From the NCBI RefSeq assembly GCF_056746865.1, contig NZ_CM163382.1: a stretch of DNA of 64,000 nucleotides; one strand, 5' to 3'. The translations under genes were made by a program, and so were the position numbers. This document shows, in pieces, positions 14,938-61,812 of this stretch (position 1 is the stretch's first letter; each line of letters starts with the position of its first letter). A model generated the notes under the pieces. It saw only the letters and a list, made by a program, of their open reading frames with translations. It made no database searches and was not told the origin of the DNA.

Positions 14938-15125
14938 TTATAGTTATTCCGTTGCGAAGACCTGGCATATATTTTGCCTCAATCGCAAAATCAATAATGC
15001 GATCGATGCGCCATTTACCACACATTTATTATGGTTATCGATATCATGATACTGCGGCGGGGCGCTAAAACGAAGGGAAGAAGCATTAGTGTAATTAATT
15101 AAAGCAAGATAATACGTATGTTTGA

Positions 15126-15413
15126 TCAATTTTCGAGGCGATAACCGGCCATAAAAAAGCGCAACGTAGAACAGGAATTATTCTCACGAAAGAAATCCAT
15201 TACCATCTCTTTATCCAGTCCATAGCGGCGCGTCAGAATACCCGCTTCCCAGGCGCTAAGCTGGCGATCTCCGGTCTTTTCGTACATCCGGTGTGAGTAG
15301 CCTAATACAAAACCGCGTTTATAATCGGCACAGAATTTTGTCACATTAACCGCACTGTCGGCATGCGTTGCTTTTAATCCCGCCATTAAGCCTTTACCAA
15401 AATGGTTATTCAT
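15126..15413 (-). CDS. yghW: Conserved small protein of unknown function
   Basis: 95 aa ORF matching remembered YghW. Confidence 0.8.
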
Positions 15414-15531
15414 CGTTCACCTCATTCGCTATATATTGTCATATATAGCGATATTTTAGGCAAAGAACGACTTTTGCGCACGCTATTTTTTCATGCTTGT
15501 TTAAGACGTAATCCCGTAAGAGATAAACCTA

Positions 15532-16416
15532 TCAGGAGAGATATTTATCGAACCATTTCAGTGTCCTTTGCCAGGCAAGATCGGCGGCAGATTTGTCATA
15601 ACGGGGCGTGGAATCATTATGGAATCCGTGATTAACCCCCGGATAGATATACGCCTCATAAACCTTATTATTGGCTTTCAACGCCGCCTCGTAAGCAGGC
15701 CAGCCCTCGTTGATTCGGGTGTCCAGTTCCGCGAAGTGGAGTAGTAAAGGCGCTTCAATCTTCGCCACATCGGCAGTGGGTGCCTGACGACCATAAAACG
15801 GCACCGCGCAGGCCAGTTCCGGATACGCGACAGCCGCCGCGTTCGATACGCCACCGCCATAGCAAAATCCGGTAATACCCACTTTGCCTGTCGCTTGCGG
15901 ATAGCGTTGCATAAACTCAATTGCGGCAAAGAAATCATTCATCAGTTTGTTGGATCAACCTGCTGTTGCAGCTCACGACCTTTATCATCATTTCCCGGAT
16001 AACCTCCAACGGAACTTAAGCCGTCAGGTGCCAGGGCGATATACCCCGCCTTCGCCACTCGCCGTGCCACATCTTCGATATACGGATTCAGTCCACGATT
16101 CTCATGCACCACCACTACGGCTGGCGTTTTGCCGCTCATCTTTGCGGGCTTCACCAGATAACCCCGCACCTCGCCGTGACCATTTGGCGAAGGATACGTG
16201 ATGTACTCAGCAACAATTTCCGGGTCGGTAAACTCTACCTGAGTCGCCAGCGCATAATTTGGCTTGAGCAAATCAAACAACGCTAATGCCGTCATCCCGC
16301 CTACTGCACTTCGCCGCAAGGTTGAGGAACTCACGTTTCGAGATTTTCCCGTGAGCGTAATAGTCATAGTAATCCAGCAACTCTTGTGGGAAATCTTTGG
16401 CGGTTAAACGCGGCAT
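15532..16416 (-). pseudogene. yghX: Dienelactone hydrolase-family gene disrupted by two frame changes (three consecutive ORF fragments)
   Basis: Track ORFs 16273-16461, 15942-16367 and 15532-15942 are contiguous pieces of one hydrolase read in different frames; frame breaks near 16307 and 15942. Confidence 0.75.
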
Positions 16417-16572
16417 CGTTGCACTCCTCAGTTGGTGTTTTTTTAAGCAAAGCATAAGCACGTGTTTTTGCCCAGTTTTTCGTCACTCTGTGAGCCAGAC
16501 TACGGGATACGCGCTGGCGAATCGCTAAACTAGAAACATTGTTTCGAAATTGAACGGTGGAAAGGAGAGGTC

Positions 16573-17613
16573 ATGGTCTGGTTAGCGAATCCCGAACGTT
16601 ACGGGCAGATGCAATACCGCTATTGCGGAAAAAGTGGTTTACGCCTGCCCGCGTTATCGCTCGGTTTATGGCACAATTTCGGTCACGTTAACGCGCTGGA
16701 ATCACAGCGTGCGATCCTGCGTAAAGCGTTTGATTTGGGCATTACGCACTTTGATTTAGCCAACAATTACGGGCCGCCTCCAGGAAGCGCAGAAGAGAAC
16801 TTTGGTCGCCTGCTGCGGGAGGATTTTGCCGCTTATCGCGATGAACTGATTATCTCTACCAAGGCTGGCTACGATATGTGGCCCGGCCCTTACGGCTCTG
16901 GCGGTTCACGTAAATACCTGCTCGCCAGCCTCGACCAAAGCCTGAAGCGTATGGGGCTTGAGTATGTCGATATCTTTTACTCTCATCGCGTCGATGAAAA
17001 TACGCCGATGGAAGAAACCGCCTCTGCGCTGGCTCATGCGGTACAAAGCGGTAAGGCGCTGTATGTCGGGATCTCCTCTTACTCGCCAGAGCGGACGCAA
17101 AAAATGGTCGAGTTGCTGCGCGAGTGGAAAATTCCGCTGTTAATTCATCAACCTTCGTACAATTTACTGAACCGCTGGGTGGATAAAAGCGGCCTGCTGG
17201 ATACTCTGCAAAATAACGGCGTGGGCTGTATTGCCTTTACTCCTCTGGCTCAGGGATTGCTGACCGGAAAATATCTCAACGGCATTCCGCAAGATTCACG
17301 GATGCATCGTGAAGGGAATAAAGTTCGTGGTCTGACACCGAAAATGCTTACCGAAGCCAACCTCAACAGCCTGCGCTTATTGAATGAAATGGCACAGCAG
17401 CGTGGACAATCAATGGCGCAAATGGCGTTAAGCTGGTTGCTGAAAGATGATCGCGTGACGTCGGTATTGATTGGTGCCAGCCGCGCGGAGCAACTAGAGG
17501 AGAACGTGCAGGCGCTGAATAATCTGACATTTAGCACCAAGGAGCTGGCGCAGATTGATCAGCATATCGCCGATGGCGAGCTGAATCTGTGGCAGGCGTC
17601 TTCCGATAAATGA
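16573..17613 (+). CDS. yghZ: Aldo-keto reductase (L-glyceraldehyde 3-phosphate reductase)
   Basis: 346 aa AKR-family ORF. Confidence 0.9.
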   Translation: MVWLANPERYGQMQYRYCGKSGLRLPALSLGLWHNFGHVNALESQRAILRKAFDLGITHFDLANNYGPPPGSAEENFGRLLREDFAAYRDELIISTKAGYDMWPGPYGSGGSRKYLLASLDQSLKRMGLEYVDIFYSHRVDENTPMEETASALAHAVQSGKALYVGISSYSPERTQKMVELLREWKIPLLIHQPSYNLLNRWVDKSGLLDTLQNNGVGCIAFTPLAQGLLTGKYLNGIPQDSRMHREGNKVRGLTPKMLTEANLNSLRLLNEMAQQRGQSMAQMALSWLLKDDRVTSVLIGASRAEQLEENVQALNNLTFSTKELAQIDQHIADGELNLWQASSDK

Positions 17614-19222: not shown

Positions 19223-19231
19223 AATAAATAT

Positions 19232-19256
19232 CCTCCGGCATAGCCGGAGGTTTTTC
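19232..19256 (+). terminator. Rho-independent terminator of yghA
   Basis: cctccggcatagccggagg hairpin followed by ttttt. Confidence 0.7.
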
Positions 19257-19257
19257 A

Positions 19258-19935
19258 AATGCGCCTATAAGGCTCTCTTACCAGCCGCGCCCTAACAGGC
19301 GCACACGATCTGACATTTGCATCCAACTTCGTTACTTACGGCCCGTAAACGGGCTGCCCGGATAGGGAATCGATAACTGCTCTCCCATTTTATCCTCTTC
19401 AAGCTGGTGCTTTATGTAATCCTGTATCTTCGCCGTGTTCTTACCCACCGTATCGACGTAGTACCCTCTGCACCAGAACTCCCTGTTCCTGTATTTGAAT
19501 TTCAAATCACCAAACTGCTCGTAAAGCATCAGACTGCTTTTCCCTTTCAGATATCCCATAAAGCCGGATACGCTCATTTTGGGCGGGATCTCCACAAGCA
19601 TATGGATATGATCTGCACAGCATTCAGCTTCCAGAATCCGTACACTTTTCCACTCACACAGCTTTCTCAAAATACTGCCTATTGCTCTACGCTTCTCTCT
19701 GTAGAACACCTGTCTTCGGTATTTTGGCGCAAATACTATGTGATATTTACAGTTCCATCGGGTGTGCGCTAAGCTCTTTTCGTTCCCCATTGGGACCCCC
19801 TTTTGATTTCTTGTTTGACACTTGCAGTTGCCAGACCGCAAGGTGTTTTAACAAATCAAAAGGGGTTTTAATAACTGGCTTAAAGCTGAAAGCTTTCCGG
19901 AACCCCCAGCCTAGCTGGGGGTTTTCTGTGCACAA
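19258..19935 (-). mobile_element. IS200-group insertion sequence (IS200/IS605 family); boundaries approximate, about +/-40 bp
   Basis: Contains a 152-aa IS200 TnpA ORF plus upstream hairpins (cccccagcctagctggggg at 19893-19911) typical of IS200 left end; no terminal inverted repeats, as expected for this family. Confidence 0.7.
19332..19790 (-). CDS. tnpA: IS200 transposase TnpA (Y1 HUH single-strand transposase)
   Basis: 152 aa from ATG at 19790 (MGNEKSLAHTRWNCKYHIVFAPKYRR...); HIH motif and C-terminal catalytic Tyr (GYYVDTVG); near-identical to remembered Salmonella IS200 TnpA. Confidence 0.9.
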   Translation of the reverse strand: MGNEKSLAHTRWNCKYHIVFAPKYRRQVFYREKRRAIGSILRKLCEWKSVRILEAECCADHIHMLVEIPPKMSVSGFMGYLKGKSSLMLYEQFGDLKFKYRNREFWCRGYYVDTVGKNTAKIQDYIKHQLEEDKMGEQLSIPYPGSPFTGRK

Positions 19936-19985: not shown

Positions 19986-20195
19986 CCTGATGTGGCGAAA
20001 ACGCCTTATCCGCCTACAAACGCATGAAGATTCAACATGTTGCAATAGATTTTGTAGGCCTGATAAGCGTAGCGCATCAGGCATTGAGCACCTAATGCCG
20101 GATGCGTCGTGAACGCCTTATCCGGCCTACAAACGCACGAAGATTCAACATGTTGCAATAGATTTTGTAGGCCTGATGAGCGTAGCGCATCAGGC
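19986..20195. repeat. Two tandem copies of a roughly 90-bp REP-IHF-REP (RIP/BIME-like) unit downstream of exbD
   Basis: Unit gccttatccgcctacaaacgcatgaagattcaacatgttgcaatagattttgtaggcctgataagcgtagcgcatcaggca repeated with 3-4 mismatches. Confidence 0.75.
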
Positions 20196-25905: not shown

Positions 25906-26009
25906 GCTTTTTACGCCTCAAACTTTCGTTTTCGGGCATTTCGTCCAGACTTAAGTTCACAACACCTCACCGGAGCCTGCTCCGGTGAGTTCATATAAAG
26001 GAGGAACGT

Positions 26010-49816: not shown

Positions 49817-50977
49817 ATGGAAAGAGTCAGTATTACCGAGCGCCCGGACTGGCGCGAAAAAGCCCACGAATACGGTTTCAATTTTCACACCATGTACGGC
49901 GAACCGTACTGGTGTGAAGATGCTTACTACAAGTTGACCCTCGCCCAGGTTGAAAAGCTGGAAGAAGTCACCGCCGAACTGCACCAGATGTGCCTGAAAG
50001 TGGTTGAAAAAGTGATCGCCAGCGATGAGCTGATGACCAAATTCCGCATTCCAAAACACACCTGGAGTTTTGTGCGCCAGTCATGGCTGACTCACCAGCC
50101 ATCGCTTTATTCGCGTCTTGATCTGGCGTGGGATGGTACTGGCGAACCTAAACTTCTGGAAAATAACGCCGATACGCCAACGTCACTGTATGAAGCCGCA
50201 TTCTTTCAGTGGATCTGGCTGGAAGATCAGCTTAACGCCGGTAACCTGCCGGAAGGCAGCGACCAGTTTAACAGTCTGCAAGAAAAGCTAATCGATCGCT
50301 TTGTCGAGTTGCGTGAACAGTATGGCTTCCAGTTGCTGCATCTCACCTGCTGTCGCGACACGGTGGAAGATCGCGGAACCATTCAGTATTTGCAGGACTG
50401 CGCGACAGAAGCTGAAATCGCTACTGAATTCCTCTACATCGACGATATCGGTTTAGGCGAAAAAGGTCAGTTCACGGATTTACAAGATCAGGTGATTTCT
50501 AACCTGTTCAAGCTGTATCCGTGGGAATTTATGCTGCGTGAGATGTTCTCCACCAAGCTGGAGGATGCAGGCGTACGCTGGCTGGAACCGGCGTGGAAGA
50601 GCATTATCTCCAACAAAGCGCTTCTACCGCTGTTGTGGGAGATGTTCCCGAATCACCCGAACCTGCTGCCCGCTTATTTTGCGGAAGATGATCATCCGCA
50701 AATGGAAAAATATGTGGTTAAACCGATCTTCTCCCGTGAAGGCGCAAACGTGTCGATCATTGAGAACGGCAAAACCATTGAAGCAGCGGAAGGTCCGTAT
50801 GGCGAAGAAGGGATGATTGTTCAGCAATTCCACCCGTTACCGAAATTCGGCGACAGCTATATGCTGATTGGTAGCTGGCTGGTTAACGATCAACCTGCCG
50901 GAATTGGCATTCGTGAAGACCGTGCATTGATCACCCAGGATATGTCTCGGTTTTATCCGCATATTTTTGTTGAGTAA
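49817..50977 (+). CDS. ygiC: ATP-grasp protein homologous to the synthetase domain of glutathionylspermidine synthetase
   Basis: 386 aa; similar to C-terminal half of gss product in same window. Confidence 0.9.
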
Positions 50978-51461
50978 TACTGTTCAATATTGCCCCGTTT
51001 ACCGGGGCAATTTATTATACTTCGCAAATCATCACCCCCATCTATATATAATCAATCACATCCATCACTTTTATTTAACATTAATTCCTAATTTAATATT
51101 AAATCGTCATATGTAAGCGATACTGTAATTAAATTAATCAATAAAATCACTTGGTAACCTATTGTTTTATGAGTTTATTTATATCCAACACCGCATCAAA
51201 AATAGATTTAATAATTAAAAAACAATGTCGCTGGGATCACACTACACAATATTGAATATTGTTATTGATATATTGCCCACCTAGTATCGACCAAAAGAAA
51301 ATATTTGTTACAGAGAAATACAAAAATTCTAAAACCAGTAAAAAATATTCATAACGATTATTATTAATACATTTTAATTCACAAAACAAATTTATTAGCA
51401 CCACCTCAACAGTCGATATTCATCATTATTATATATTTGCGTTATATAAGGAGATATATCC

Positions 51462-53258
51462 ATGTTTGATAAATATAGAAAAACTCTGGTAGCCGGAGCT
51501 GTGGCGATAACTCTGGGTTTGTCAGCACCGGGGGTGATGGCAGCAGGTTTTAAACCCGCACCACCTGCCGGGCAACTGGGTGCAGTCATTGTCGATCCCT
51601 ACGGCAATGCACCACTGACCGCTTTGGTTGACTTAGATAGCCATGTCATTTCTGATGTCAAAGTTACCGTCCATGGGAAGGGCGAAAAAGGCGTAGAAAT
51701 CAGCTATCCCGTGGGTCAGGAATCACTAAAAACTTATGATGGTGTACCGATTTTTGGTCTTTATCAGAAATTTGCTAACAAAGTGACCGTTGAGTGGAAA
51801 GAAAACGGCAAGGTCATGAAAGATGATTATGTGGTGCACACTTCGGCCATCGTCAATAATTACATGGATAACCGCTCTATCTCCGATTTACAACAGACCA
51901 AAGTTATTAAAGTCGCACCGGGTTTTGAAGATCGCCTCTATCTGGTTAATACCCACACCTTTACCGCCCAAGGTTCCGATCTCCACTGGCATGGTGAGAA
52001 AGATAAAAATGCCGGTATCCTTGATGCGGGTCCGGCAACCGGCGCACTACCTTTTGATATCGCGCCCTTTACTTTCATTGTCGATACCGAAGGTGAATAC
52101 CGCTGGTGGCTGGATCAAGACACTTTCTACGATGGTCGTGACCGCGATATCAACAAGCGTGGTTATCTGATGGGTATCCGCGAAACACCACGCGGCACCT
52201 TTACCGCTGTACAAGGTCAGCACTGGTACGAGTTCGACATGATGGGGCAGGTGCTCGAAGATCACAAACTACCGCGCGGATTTGCTGACGCCACTCATGA
52301 GTCCATTGAGACGCCTAATGGCACAGTATTGTTGCGCGTAGGTAAGAGCAATTACCGTCGCGATGACGGCGTACACGTCACCACCATTCGTGACCATATC
52401 CTCGAAGTCGATAAATCTGGTCGCGTTGTCGATGTATGGGATCTGACCAAGATCCTCGATCCGAAACGCGATGCACTGCTCGGCGCGCTGGATGCAGGTG
52501 CAGTTTGCGTTAACGTTGACCTTGCCCATGCAGGACAACAGGCAAAACTGGAACCGGATACACCGTTCGGCGACGCGCTGGGTGTAGGGCCAGGTCGTAA
52601 CTGGGCGCACGTTAACTCAATCGCCTATGACGCAAAAGATGACTCAATCATCCTCTCCTCTCGCCACCAGGGTGTTGTGAAAATTGGTCGTGATAAGCAA
52701 GTGAAATGGATCCTTGCGCCCTCTAAAGGTTGGGAAAAACCGCTGGCCAGCAAGCTGCTGAAACCGGTTGATGCTAACGGTAAGCCAATTACCTGTAACG
52801 AAAATGGCCTGTGCGAAAACTCAGACTTCGACTTTACCTACACCCAGCATACCGCCTGGATTTCCAGCAAAGGAACGCTCACCATTTTTGATAATGGCGA
52901 TGGGCGTCATCTGGAACAACCTGCCTTACCAACCATGAAATACTCCCGCTTTGTGGAATATAAGATTGATGAGAAGAAAGGCACCGTTCAGCAAGTGTGG
53001 GAATACGGTAAAGAACGTGGCTACGATTTCTATAGCCCGATTACCTCCATCATTGAATATCAAGCCGACCGTAACACCATGTTTGGCTTCGGTGGTTCTA
53101 TTCATTTGTTCGATGTCGGGCAGCCAACCGTCGGTAAGTTGAACGAAATCGATTACAAAACCAAAGAAGTGAAAGTGGAAATCGACGTGCTGTCAGATAA
53201 ACCCAATCAGACTCACTATCGTGCACTGTTAGTCCGTCCACAACAGATGTTCAAATAA
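51462..53258 (+). CDS. assT: Periplasmic arylsulfate sulfotransferase (ASST)
   Basis: 598 aa with Sec signal peptide; matches remembered AssT of uropathogenic E. coli. Confidence 0.85.
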   Translation: MFDKYRKTLVAGAVAITLGLSAPGVMAAGFKPAPPAGQLGAVIVDPYGNAPLTALVDLDSHVISDVKVTVHGKGEKGVEISYPVGQESLKTYDGVPIFGLYQKFANKVTVEWKENGKVMKDDYVVHTSAIVNNYMDNRSISDLQQTKVIKVAPGFEDRLYLVNTHTFTAQGSDLHWHGEKDKNAGILDAGPATGALPFDIAPFTFIVDTEGEYRWWLDQDTFYDGRDRDINKRGYLMGIRETPRGTFTAVQGQHWYEFDMMGQVLEDHKLPRGFADATHESIETPNGTVLLRVGKSNYRRDDGVHVTTIRDHILEVDKSGRVVDVWDLTKILDPKRDALLGALDAGAVCVNVDLAHAGQQAKLEPDTPFGDALGVGPGRNWAHVNSIAYDAKDDSIILSSRHQGVVKIGRDKQVKWILAPSKGWEKPLASKLLKPVDANGKPITCNENGLCENSDFDFTYTQHTAWISSKGTLTIFDNGDGRHLEQPALPTMKYSRFVEYKIDEKKGTVQQVWEYGKERGYDFYSPITSIIEYQADRNTMFGFGGSIHLFDVGQPTVGKLNEIDYKTKEVKVEIDVLSDKPNQTHYRALLVRPQQMFK

Positions 53259-53275
53259 TTAAGAAGGGAATAAAA

Positions 53276-53944
53276 ATGTCGAAATTAGGGATCTCATCAC
53301 TATTTAAAACCATACTGCTTACCGCAGCTTTGGCTGTTTCATTTACCGCTTCTGCATTTACCGAAGGCACGGATTACATGGTTCTGGAAAAACCTATTCC
53401 GAATGCCGACAAAACGCTGATTAAGGTATTTAGCTACGCCTGCCCGTTCTGTTACAAGTACGACAAAGCGGTTACCGGTCCGGTATCGGAAAAAGTGAAA
53501 GATATCGTTGCTTTTACTCCATTCCATCTGGAAACAAAAGGTGAATACGGCAAACAAGCAAGCGAAGTCTTTGCGGTCTTGATCAATAAAGATAAAGCAG
53601 CAGGTATTTCATTATTTGATGCTAACTCTCAGTTTAAGAAAGCCAAGTTTGCTTATTACGCGGCTTATCATGACAAAAAAGAACGCTGGTCTGATGGTAA
53701 AGATCCGGCTGCCTTTATCAAAACCGGACTGGACGCCGCAGGTATGAGTCAGGCCGATTTTGAAGCCGCGCTGAAAGAGCCTGCAGTTCAGGAAACGCTG
53801 GAAAAATGGAAAGCCTCTTATGAAGTTGCAAAAATCCAGGGCGTTCCGGCGTATGTCGTCAATGGTAAATACCTGATCTACACCAAGAGTATTAAATCTA
53901 TTGACTCAATGGCAGACCTTATCCGCGAGTTAGCAAGCAAATAA
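53276..53944 (+). CDS. dsbL: Periplasmic thiol:disulfide oxidoreductase, DsbA paralog (CPFC active site)
   Basis: 222 aa; signal peptide; CPFC motif read directly. Confidence 0.85.
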
Positions 53945-53958
53945 CAGGGAAACAGGCT

Positions 53959-54630
53959 ATGGGTATTAAGGGAATGTGGAAAGACCTTCGCACTTCACCG
54001 GTGGACACGCTGGTAAGATGGCAAGAACAACGTTTTTTGTGGTTGTTAATGGCCATTGCGATGGGCGCGTTAATTATCCTGGCGCACTCTTTCTTCCAGA
54101 TCTATCTCTACATGGCACCCTGTGAGCAATGTGTATACATTCGCTACGCCATGTTTGTGATGGTTATTGGAGGATTGGTTGCAGCGATCAACCCAAAGAA
54201 CATCATCCTAAAGCTAATTGGCTGCGTGATGGCATTTTACGGCAGCATTTTGGGACTGAAGTTTTCGCTCAAACTGAACGATATCCACCATGCAGTACAT
54301 AATCCGGATCCCGATTCACTGTTTGGCGTACAGGGTTGCTCTACCGATCCAACTTTTCCCTTTAACCTGCCGCTGGCACAGTGGGCACCAAATTGGTTCA
54401 AGCCTACCGGGGATTGTGGCTATGACGCACCAATCGTTCCTGATGGCGTCACACTGAGCAGCACGCAACAGTGGTTTGTGGAAATGTATCAGCAATCTGA
54501 AGGCTGGTATCTGCTACCACCATGGCATTTTATGAATATGGCTCAGGCTTGTATGCTGGCTTTTGGTATGTGTCTGGTGCTGCTGGTCATTATGAGTGGC
54601 GCATGGGCGCTTAAAATCATCAGAGGCTAA
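53959..54630 (+). CDS. dsbI: Membrane disulfide-bond oxidoreductase, DsbB paralog
   Basis: 223 aa; periplasmic-loop Cys pairs CEQC and C...C; multiple TM helices. Confidence 0.85.
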
Positions 54631-54638
54631 CTCAGCAA

Positions 54639-54675
54639 CACCCGAAGCCAGTCGTTCTGGCTTCGGGTTCTTTTA
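54639..54675. terminator. Bidirectional terminator between dsbI and ygiD
   Basis: acccgaagccagtcgttctggcttcgggt hairpin then tcttttatt. Confidence 0.7.
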
Positions 54676-57599: not shown

Positions 57600-57770
57600 C
57601 GTGAGCGGGTCCATGCCCGACAGAATCGTTACTCTCTCCCATCCGGACTCTAACCGTCGGCCCCGGAATTACACCGGATCTGCTGTCCTTTGAGTTCGCA
57701 CCCAAAGCGCTCGCGGGCTTTCAACTGAGTTGATTTACCGCCGGTGGGGAATTTCGCCCCGCCCTGAGAA
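57600..57770 (-). promoter_or_regulatory. FMN riboswitch (RFN element) in the ribB leader
   Basis: Minus-strand leader contains conserved RFN segments gggcggggcgaaattccccaccggcgg ... ccgggg ... ggatgggagag upstream of ribB; boundaries approximate. Confidence 0.8.
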
Positions 57771-57896
57771 TAAGCGGATTCACTATAACGCTAATGATTA
57801 GCGCCAGCAACGCATAGCTTCACATAATTCTGGTTTATGACTTACCCTTATCGCACTACAATGGCACTCAACACCTATCAGTACAGGGAAACTACA

Positions 57897-61211: not shown

Positions 61212-61352
61212 GGGAAAGCCCCTCCCGAAGAAGGGGCCTTATAGAAGGAAAGGGTTATGATGAAGCTCGTCATCATACTGATTGTGTTGTTACTAGTAAG
61301 TTTCCAGGCTTATTAACAACCAATTCAGAGGGGGGAGAAATCCTCCCTTACC
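61212..61352 (-). ncRNA. sibD: Sib antisense sRNA (antitoxin), copy 1; ends approximate
   Basis: Antisense to ibs ORF; minus-strand terminator hairpin gccccttcttcgggaggggc plus T-run at about 61217-61240. Confidence 0.55.
61257..61316 (+). CDS. ibsD: Ibs type I toxin, 19 aa (MMKLVIILIVLLLVSFQAY)
   Basis: Hand-translated; hydrophobic 19-mer typical of Ibs; ggaaaggg SD-like sequence upstream. Confidence 0.7.
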   Translation: MMKLVIILIVLLLVSFQAY

Positions 61353-61588
61353 CTTGTTCCTTTACTTTAGGTTGAAAAAAAATCAGCGTCAAGAAGGTTT
61401 CTCTATCCCACATCCCTGGCCCAAAAAGCCGGGGATTTTTTATATCTGCGTTCCGCTAAAAGGTGCAAATGATCAGGCTGTTGCAGCATTTTGCGTGACG
61501 GCTCGGGGAAGGCAAAACTGCATCAGGGAAAGCATTGCGCGGGGTCTGGCGCTCATCAACAATCGGGGAGTCAGCAAGGGGCTGAAAC

Positions 61589-61729
61589 GGGAAAGCCCCT
61601 CCCGAAGAAGGGGCCTTGTATAAGGAAAGGGTTATGATGAAGCTGGTCATCATACTGATTGTGTTGTTACTCGTAAGTTTCGCAGCTTATTAACAGCCAA
61701 TCAGAGGGGGGAGAAATCCTCCCTCACCC
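61589..61729 (-). ncRNA. sibE: Sib antisense sRNA (antitoxin), copy 2; ends approximate
   Basis: Same architecture as copy 1. Confidence 0.55.
61634..61693 (+). CDS. ibsE: Ibs type I toxin, 19 aa (MMKLVIILIVLLLVSFAAY)
   Basis: Hand-translated; differs from copy 1 by Q17A. Confidence 0.7.
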   Translation: MMKLVIILIVLLLVSFAAY

Positions 61730-61812
61730 TTGTTCCTTTACTTTAGGTTGAAAAAAAAACAGCGTCAATAGGCCTGCCAGGTTCGAAGCGAGATCTGTGA
61801 ACCGCTTTCCGG

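Follow-up and report, generated by a model that had tools for sequence, protein, structure and literature searches.

Two small deletions interrupt the yghX hydrolase gene of an Escherichia coli chromosome

Results and Discussion

Three open reading frames from one hydrolase gene

On the minus strand of a 64,000-nt stretch of the E. coli contig NZ_CM163382.1 (assembly GCF_056746865.1; hereafter the window, to which all positions refer), three consecutive and collinear open reading frames (ORFs) at 15532-16416 jointly span one 295-aa YghX-family protein of the dienelactone hydrolase (DLH) type. This arrangement raises the question of whether a functional hydrolase can still be made here and, if not, how the gene was lost. 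With a probability of about 0.95, we consider the region to be the yghX pseudogene, a recently inactivated copy of the gene for the 295-aa YghX-family hydrolase that carries two small deletions. The broken state of yghX is already known, as the gene is a long-annotated pseudogene of K-12-like E. coli, termed "frameshifted" by RefSeq in strain 7/2 and in MG1655 and "pseudogene" in NC_000913.3. A sequence-only reading of the window had arrived at a decaying yghX pseudogene of the DLH family, and both the public annotation and our lesion alignment agree with it. Nowhere in the sequence analysis did we find evidence against the pseudogene reading.

The locus is flanked by yghW and gpr and adjoins the hyb operon, with the same neighbours in the window and in all loci retrieved; in the window, hybO and yghW follow downstream, and gpr, which is on the opposite strand, lies upstream. 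Strain 7/2 is identical to the window over 15400-16600, and the same coordinates are annotated there as "YghX family hydrolase, frameshifted". The features of the locus are compiled in Table 1. Fragment 1 consists of the native start and 36 native codons, followed by 11 out-of-frame codons and a TGA. Fragment 2 contributes the N-terminal part of the DLH domain and also contains a signal-like hydrophobic segment. The nucleotide losses sum to 3 nt (-2 and -1 giving -3, with a span of 885 nt = 3 x 295) and therefore fragments 1 and 3 share one frame, and the gene is spread over two reading frames. The description of the gene as broken into three frames thus has to be corrected.

Table 1. Features of the yghX locus in the window, with the strand and the basis of each assignment.
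Feature	Position	Strand	Description	Basis
yghX pseudogene, whole	15532..16416	-	885 nt vs 888 nt in intact alleles	aligned to intact alleles
Fragment 1 (sORF yqhI)	16273-16416	-	47 aa from ATG at 16416	translation; Pfam PF23678
Fragment 2 ORF	15942-16367	-	141 aa; homologous part from ~16307	ORF list, translation
Fragment 2, homologous part	15942..16307	-	ancestral residues 38-156 (...QQQVDPT), then Asn and TGA	translation
Fragment 3	15532-15942	-	136 aa; ancestral residues 160-295 from Met160, original frame regained	ORF list, translation
Stop/start overlap TGATG	15940-15944	-	TGA of fragment 2 overlaps native Met160 ATG of fragment 3	
Lesion 1, 2-bp "TA" deletion	between 16309 and 16308	-	intact AAG TAT GCG -> AAGTGC	alignments, allele 30-mers
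Lesion 2, 1-bp C deletion	~15949/15948	-	intact CCA ACC AAA CTG -> CCAACAAACTG	alignments
G>A substitution	16305	-	gene position 112; not in K-12	alignment
Cys186 codon	15862..15864	-	predicted nucleophile, motif GFCYGG	aligns with ClcD residue 123 (4u2c_A)
Asp233 codon	15721..15723	-	predicted triad acid	aligns with ClcD Asp171
His264 codon	15628..15630	-	predicted triad base	aligns with ClcD His202

Searches with family profiles tied the three pieces together. The NCBIfam model NF041440 (YghX family hydrolase) matched fragment 1 over model positions 1-36 (E = 3.7e-15, 55.8 bits), fragment 2 over 34-155 (E = 2e-69, 233.9 bits) and fragment 3 over 158-292 (E = 5e-78, 262.2 bits). Taken separately, each of the window pieces falls below the curated cut-off of 460 bits, whereas the intact SBF22 orthologue reaches 587.3 bits. 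In Pfam, the YqhI-like family PF23678 matched fragment 1 (E = 1.1e-21), and the DLH family (PF01738) matched fragment 2 with its positions 1-50 and fragment 3 with its positions 79-217 (E = 1.2e-32). The intact orthologue matches the full DLH profile (1-217 of 217, E = 2.7e-48), whereas the match in the window is split across two frames. Since the three pieces are collinear on NF041440 and on the Pfam profile, they are parts of one gene; these matches lie far beyond chance and bear out the proposal that the three minus-strand ORFs derive from one alpha/beta hydrolase. Judged by its profile matches, the window copy belongs to the NF041440 family as a broken member, a pseudogene.

Two deletions relative to uninterrupted alleles

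Alignment with intact orthologues had been named beforehand as a check for this locus. We aligned the window gene with that of MG1655, with the single-lesion genes of EC931 and PEC408, and with four uninterrupted 888-nt alleles (O157 644-PT8, SBF22, PS_131_S11 and SCU-111). Relative to the uninterrupted alleles, the window gene contains exactly two indels, one of 2 bp and one of 1 bp. The 2-bp deletion (lesion 1) destroys codon Tyr37 and shifts the frame, and the 1-bp deletion (lesion 2) hits codon Thr157, where the intact CCA ACC AAA has become CCAACAAA, and results in a stop at 15942-15944. The earlier placement of the frame changes near 16307 and 15942 was off by no more than a few bases; the lesions proper are those given in Table 1, and 15942 marks the point where the new stop overlaps the next ATG, not lesion 2 itself. 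With the 3 nt restored, the window gene encodes a 295-aa protein that equals the SBF22 protein and is 2 residues off the O157 protein.

The K-12 locus yghX/yqhI (NC_000913.3) has the same location, the same two deletions at the same positions and the same length of 885 nt as the window copy. The two differ at yghX by a single substitution, the G>A at 16305, which replaces Gly38 of YqhI by Ser (G38S), is silent in the ancestral frame and is a variant common to 253 genomes.

Distribution of the lesions among E. coli genomes

The locus was found in 5,425 of 5,426 complete E. coli genomes with a query of 1,201 nt. Alleles were counted with probes of 30-31 nt centred on each lesion, which can match only via an exact 28-mer spanning the junction; probes of 60 nt were dropped for counting, as nearby SNPs mixed with indels in the identity bands. 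At site 2, the allele-specific probes assigned the 1-bp deletion to 1,197 and the intact sequence to 4,220 of the 5,426 complete genomes, jointly 5,417. At site 1, the 2-bp deletion occurred in its window variant in 253 genomes and in its K-12 variant in 1,248, in total 1,501 of the 5,426. By subtraction, about 72% of the complete E. coli genomes carry the intact gene and hence lack the yqhI sORF. All divergent haplotypes (95-98% identity) are intact, and the breaks are confined to a haplotype group of at least 99% identity. Uninterrupted orthologues occupy the same locus in close relatives, and the disruptions are the derived state.

These counts bear directly on the possibility that errors of sequencing or assembly created the frame breaks and that the gene is intact in this strain. 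Both lesions are small indels, a type that some platforms produce, and lesion 2 falls within a CC dinucleotide. However, exactly the same two lesions recur in complete genomes that were sequenced and assembled independently (1,197 and 1,501 of them), including the MG1655 reference; in addition, genomes with a single lesion exist, and neither site is a long homopolymer. The hedge in the sequence-only reading that the breaks might be sequencing errors is refuted by this recurrence, and we regard the probability of such errors as practically nil. Both lesions are real and inherited.

Approximately 300 genomes (about 304, by subtraction) contain the 2-bp deletion alone, EC931 and PEC408 being examples. 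Conversely, the 1-bp deletion never occurred without the 2-bp deletion in a sample of 40 rows drawn at even intervals from the ranked genome matches. From the allele counts and this sample we infer that the 1-bp deletion is nested within the 2-bp deletion. The loss of TA in codon 37 was probably the first event, because some genomes carry the 2-bp deletion alone, and the loss of C in codon 157 would be a later second hit in an already dead gene. The counts of 1,501, 1,197 and ~304 make yghX a clean case of stepwise decay and provide a marker for the haplotype group.

Some further observations concern the distribution of the locus. A strain of ST69 (O15:H18) carries the K-12-type double-lesion allele with 99.9% identity, and the pseudogene haplotype may, judging from this allele, have moved between lineages by recombination. 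One of the ~6,100 matching places in the search of the E. coli genomes was on a plasmid, and some genomes had 2-3 places. In E. coli IAL7255 (NZ_CM130730.1; L009 3001-3229), only the last ~229 bp of the query are present, comprising the end of yghX and the spacer; this remnant has moved to the interval from brnTA to mdtM, beside a copy of IS1, and points to rearrangement or deletion of the locus by an IS.

Programmed frameshifting as an alternative

A different explanation would leave the gene functional: programmed frameshifting, +1 near 16308 and -1 near 15948, might fuse the pieces into an active hydrolase. The shifts cancel to a multiple of three, and one +1 plus one -1 event would give back nearly the whole protein; the 5' end of the gene is known to be translated. 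Such recoding would need a +1 (or -2) shift within gene positions 14-144 and also a -1 (or +2) shift within a window of only 10 nt, gene positions 463-472 (TCCAACAAAC), and two independent events of low efficiency would multiply. We searched both windows for suitable signals. An X XXY YYZ heptamer was present neither in the site-2 rescue window 463-472 nor in the site-1 window 14-144, and no prfB-like CUU UGA or comparable +1 motif was found in the site-1 window before the frame-0 stop or at site 2. At site 2, one can conceive only of a -1 slip in which the tRNA-Asn, with the AAC in the P site beside the UGA stop, moves from AAC to AAA, and the product would continue as ...PT-N-LMN...; no such signal is known.

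Programmed recoding sites are conserved. Among the yghX orthologues, in contrast, neither the aligned intact alleles nor the counts over 5,426 genomes revealed conservation of the frameshifts: the uninterrupted gene is the ancestral state and the majority form (at site 2 in 4,220 of 5,426 genomes), and the derived breaks occur in some lineages only. The likeness to prfB (+1) and dnaX (-1) of E. coli is superficial and limited to an ORF that continues in another frame; unlike these two genes, yghX has neither a conserved shift site nor a slippery sequence, and its intact orthologues prevail. Moreover, the size of the tagged YqhI product corresponds to that of the truncated ORF (PMC6001520). A fused product by programmed frameshifting had been called unlikely from the letters; with most genomes uninterrupted and without a slippery motif, it is very unlikely indeed, and we see hardly any chance for it. 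Inactivation by two deletions is retained as our explanation of the frame breaks.

The protein that was lost

The intact protein consists of a YqhI-like region (residues 1-36) and a DLH domain (residues 84-294), and its residues 59-294 match PDB entry 4ZV9, the solved structure of the mature domain, which was deposited as "Uncharacterized protein". In intact YghX (NF041440), of which WP_001302757.1 (O157) and WP_001137768.1 (SBF22) are examples, the YqhI-like region precedes DLH, as it does in the window gene. For the prediction of catalytic residues, ClcD of Pseudomonas (PDB 1DIN and 4U2C; PF01738) was aligned over chain residues 6-227 of 236 (E ~4e-15), and its positions 123, 171 and 202 align with positions 186, 233 and 264 of YghX. 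In chain 4u2c_A, position 123 is Ser; the nucleophile of wild-type ClcD we take to be Cys123 (1DIN). The codons of all three predicted triad residues are still present in fragment 3. ClcD is, however, a distant relative that lacks the extra N-terminal region of ~58 residues of YghX (the YqhI-like part and the hydrophobic segment), and "dienelactone hydrolase" is for YghX a family label, not a demonstrated activity.

The N-terminal region has features that resemble an export signal. Residues 26-32 of the intact protein read S-K-R-E-F-L-N and are followed by a hydrophobic stretch and then by ALA at 56-58, directly before TQ starting at 59. Tat signals have the motif S/T-R-R-x-F-L-K, then a hydrophobic region, and then an AxA site for cleavage; the candidate motif in intact YghX contains KR, not RR. 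The construct of PDB 4ZV9 starts at about residue 57-59, right behind the signal-like segment. No Tat-signal model of NCBIfam matched at E <= 1. Read by eye, residues 26-58 may be a Tat signal of the KR type or another export signal.

As it is interrupted twice, the window copy, read from its sequence, cannot encode the 295-aa protein. Presumably, no functional hydrolase is made, as fragment 3 would bear the triad without the N-terminal half of the fold and without any export signal. The locus would be drifting neutrally, and the single extra substitution in the window fits such drift. Where the gene is intact, selection has apparently preserved it: the repaired window gene and the O157 allele differ by 15 nucleotide changes, 13 of them synonymous, and SCU-111 shows dozens of nucleotide differences and only a handful of amino-acid changes. 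Differences among the intact alleles are therefore mostly silent, and the intact gene appears to be under purifying selection. In W3110, yghX has been used as a neutral site for integration under the label "pseudogene" (PMC7677707), and the locus is routinely replaced in production strains with no cost reported.

The YqhI remnant and residual activity of the locus

Although it is a pseudogene, the locus is not silent; it is still transcribed and its 5' end is translated. The RNA of yghX is detectable and responds to conditions. YqhI, of 47 aa, was detected via a chromosomal SPA tag in MG1655, and Table 1 of that study places yqhI between "yghX_2" and gpr (PMC6001520). Its sequence shows this small protein to be the N terminus of YghX (36 native residues) with an 11-residue frameshift tail, and the G38S difference between the window and K-12 makes the tail already variable. 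According to published work, transcription and translation from the native ATG would yield only the 47-aa YqhI in K-12.

YqhI was also among 17 small proteins with increased ribosome footprints in Mg2+ starvation, and yqhI RNA likewise rises in low Mg2+ (PMC11429745). In the same study, deletion of yqhI lowered the growth yield in low Mg2+, a defect that a YqhI plasmid failed to complement; its authors suspect a cryptic ORF or regulatory element within the yqhI sORF, and their summary table lists "no effect" for YqhI (PMC11429745). The name yghX does not occur in that paper. The uncomplemented defect of the yqhI deletion leaves room for some residual role of the locus, and phenotypes of yqhI should be interpreted with its pseudogene context in mind, as well as with the ~72% of complete genomes that do without the sORF.

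One could imagine that the locus was partly repurposed, so that YqhI or another product of the broken gene, such as the ORF in the +1 frame with its start at 16367 within yqhI or a re-initiated fragment 3, has a role of its own, for instance in Mg2+ limitation. YqhI is made from the chromosome, its footprints and RNA increase in low Mg2+, the yqhI deletion shows the growth-yield defect, and a cryptic ORF or regulatory element has been suggested (PMC11429745). The stop of fragment 2 and the start of fragment 3 overlap as well (TGATG), a geometry typical of translational coupling by which fragment 3, with the whole predicted triad, could in principle be re-initiated. Yet YqhI itself did not complement and was tabulated with "no effect"; 11 of its 47 residues are by-products of the frameshift, one of them already changed (G38S); the lesions are too young for selection to show; and production strains from which the locus was removed showed no reported cost. 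We regard such repurposing as a long shot. A slim chance can be given to co-option of the YqhI remnant, or of a cryptic product or regulatory element within it, such as the +1-frame ORF running from 16367 into fragment 2. If true, co-option would account for the growth defect of the yqhI deletion in low Mg2+ that YqhI did not complement, and would make YqhI a very young small protein, born from a frameshifted signal-peptide region. Our preferred reading remains that of a decaying pseudogene.

A scan for consensus promoters and terminators over 15000-16700 was uninformative: the sites were no more numerous than in shuffled sequence, and none lay upstream of yghX. No Rfam family matched in or beside yghX.

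Relation of the window to K-12 and other features

The window does not represent K-12, from which it differs by the SNP at 16305, an IS200-like insertion and an assT-dsbL-dsbI island. Up to position 19,229, it shows only two base differences to strain 7/2. A segment of ~705 bp between yghA and exbD (19229-19934) is missing from this near-identical strain. It contains a transposase ORF at 19332-19841 (-), which appears IS200-like by eye from its translation, and a match to the Rfam family STnc490 at 19800-19923 (146 bits); REP-type naRNA4 matches flank the insertion at 20057-20127. Between ygiC and ygiD, the window has a segment of 3.7 kb (50977-54673) with three ORFs of 598, 222 and 223 aa that strain 7/2 does not have at that place; we take these (genes 51462-54630) to be AssT (arylsulfate sulfotransferase), DsbL and DsbI. 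The fimbrial ygiL-yqiI region of strain 7/2 has no counterpart at the matching place downstream in the window.

Further matches at the Rfam gathering level were located at 8300-8376, 25908-25971, 57627-57775, 61242-61392 and 61619-61768. They comprise naRNA4 (REP-derived), the ES173 sRNA within dkgA, the FMN riboswitch that lies upstream of ribB and, opposite ibs toxin genes, the SIB antitoxin RNAs sibD and sibE. All of them are expected in this region of the E. coli chromosome.
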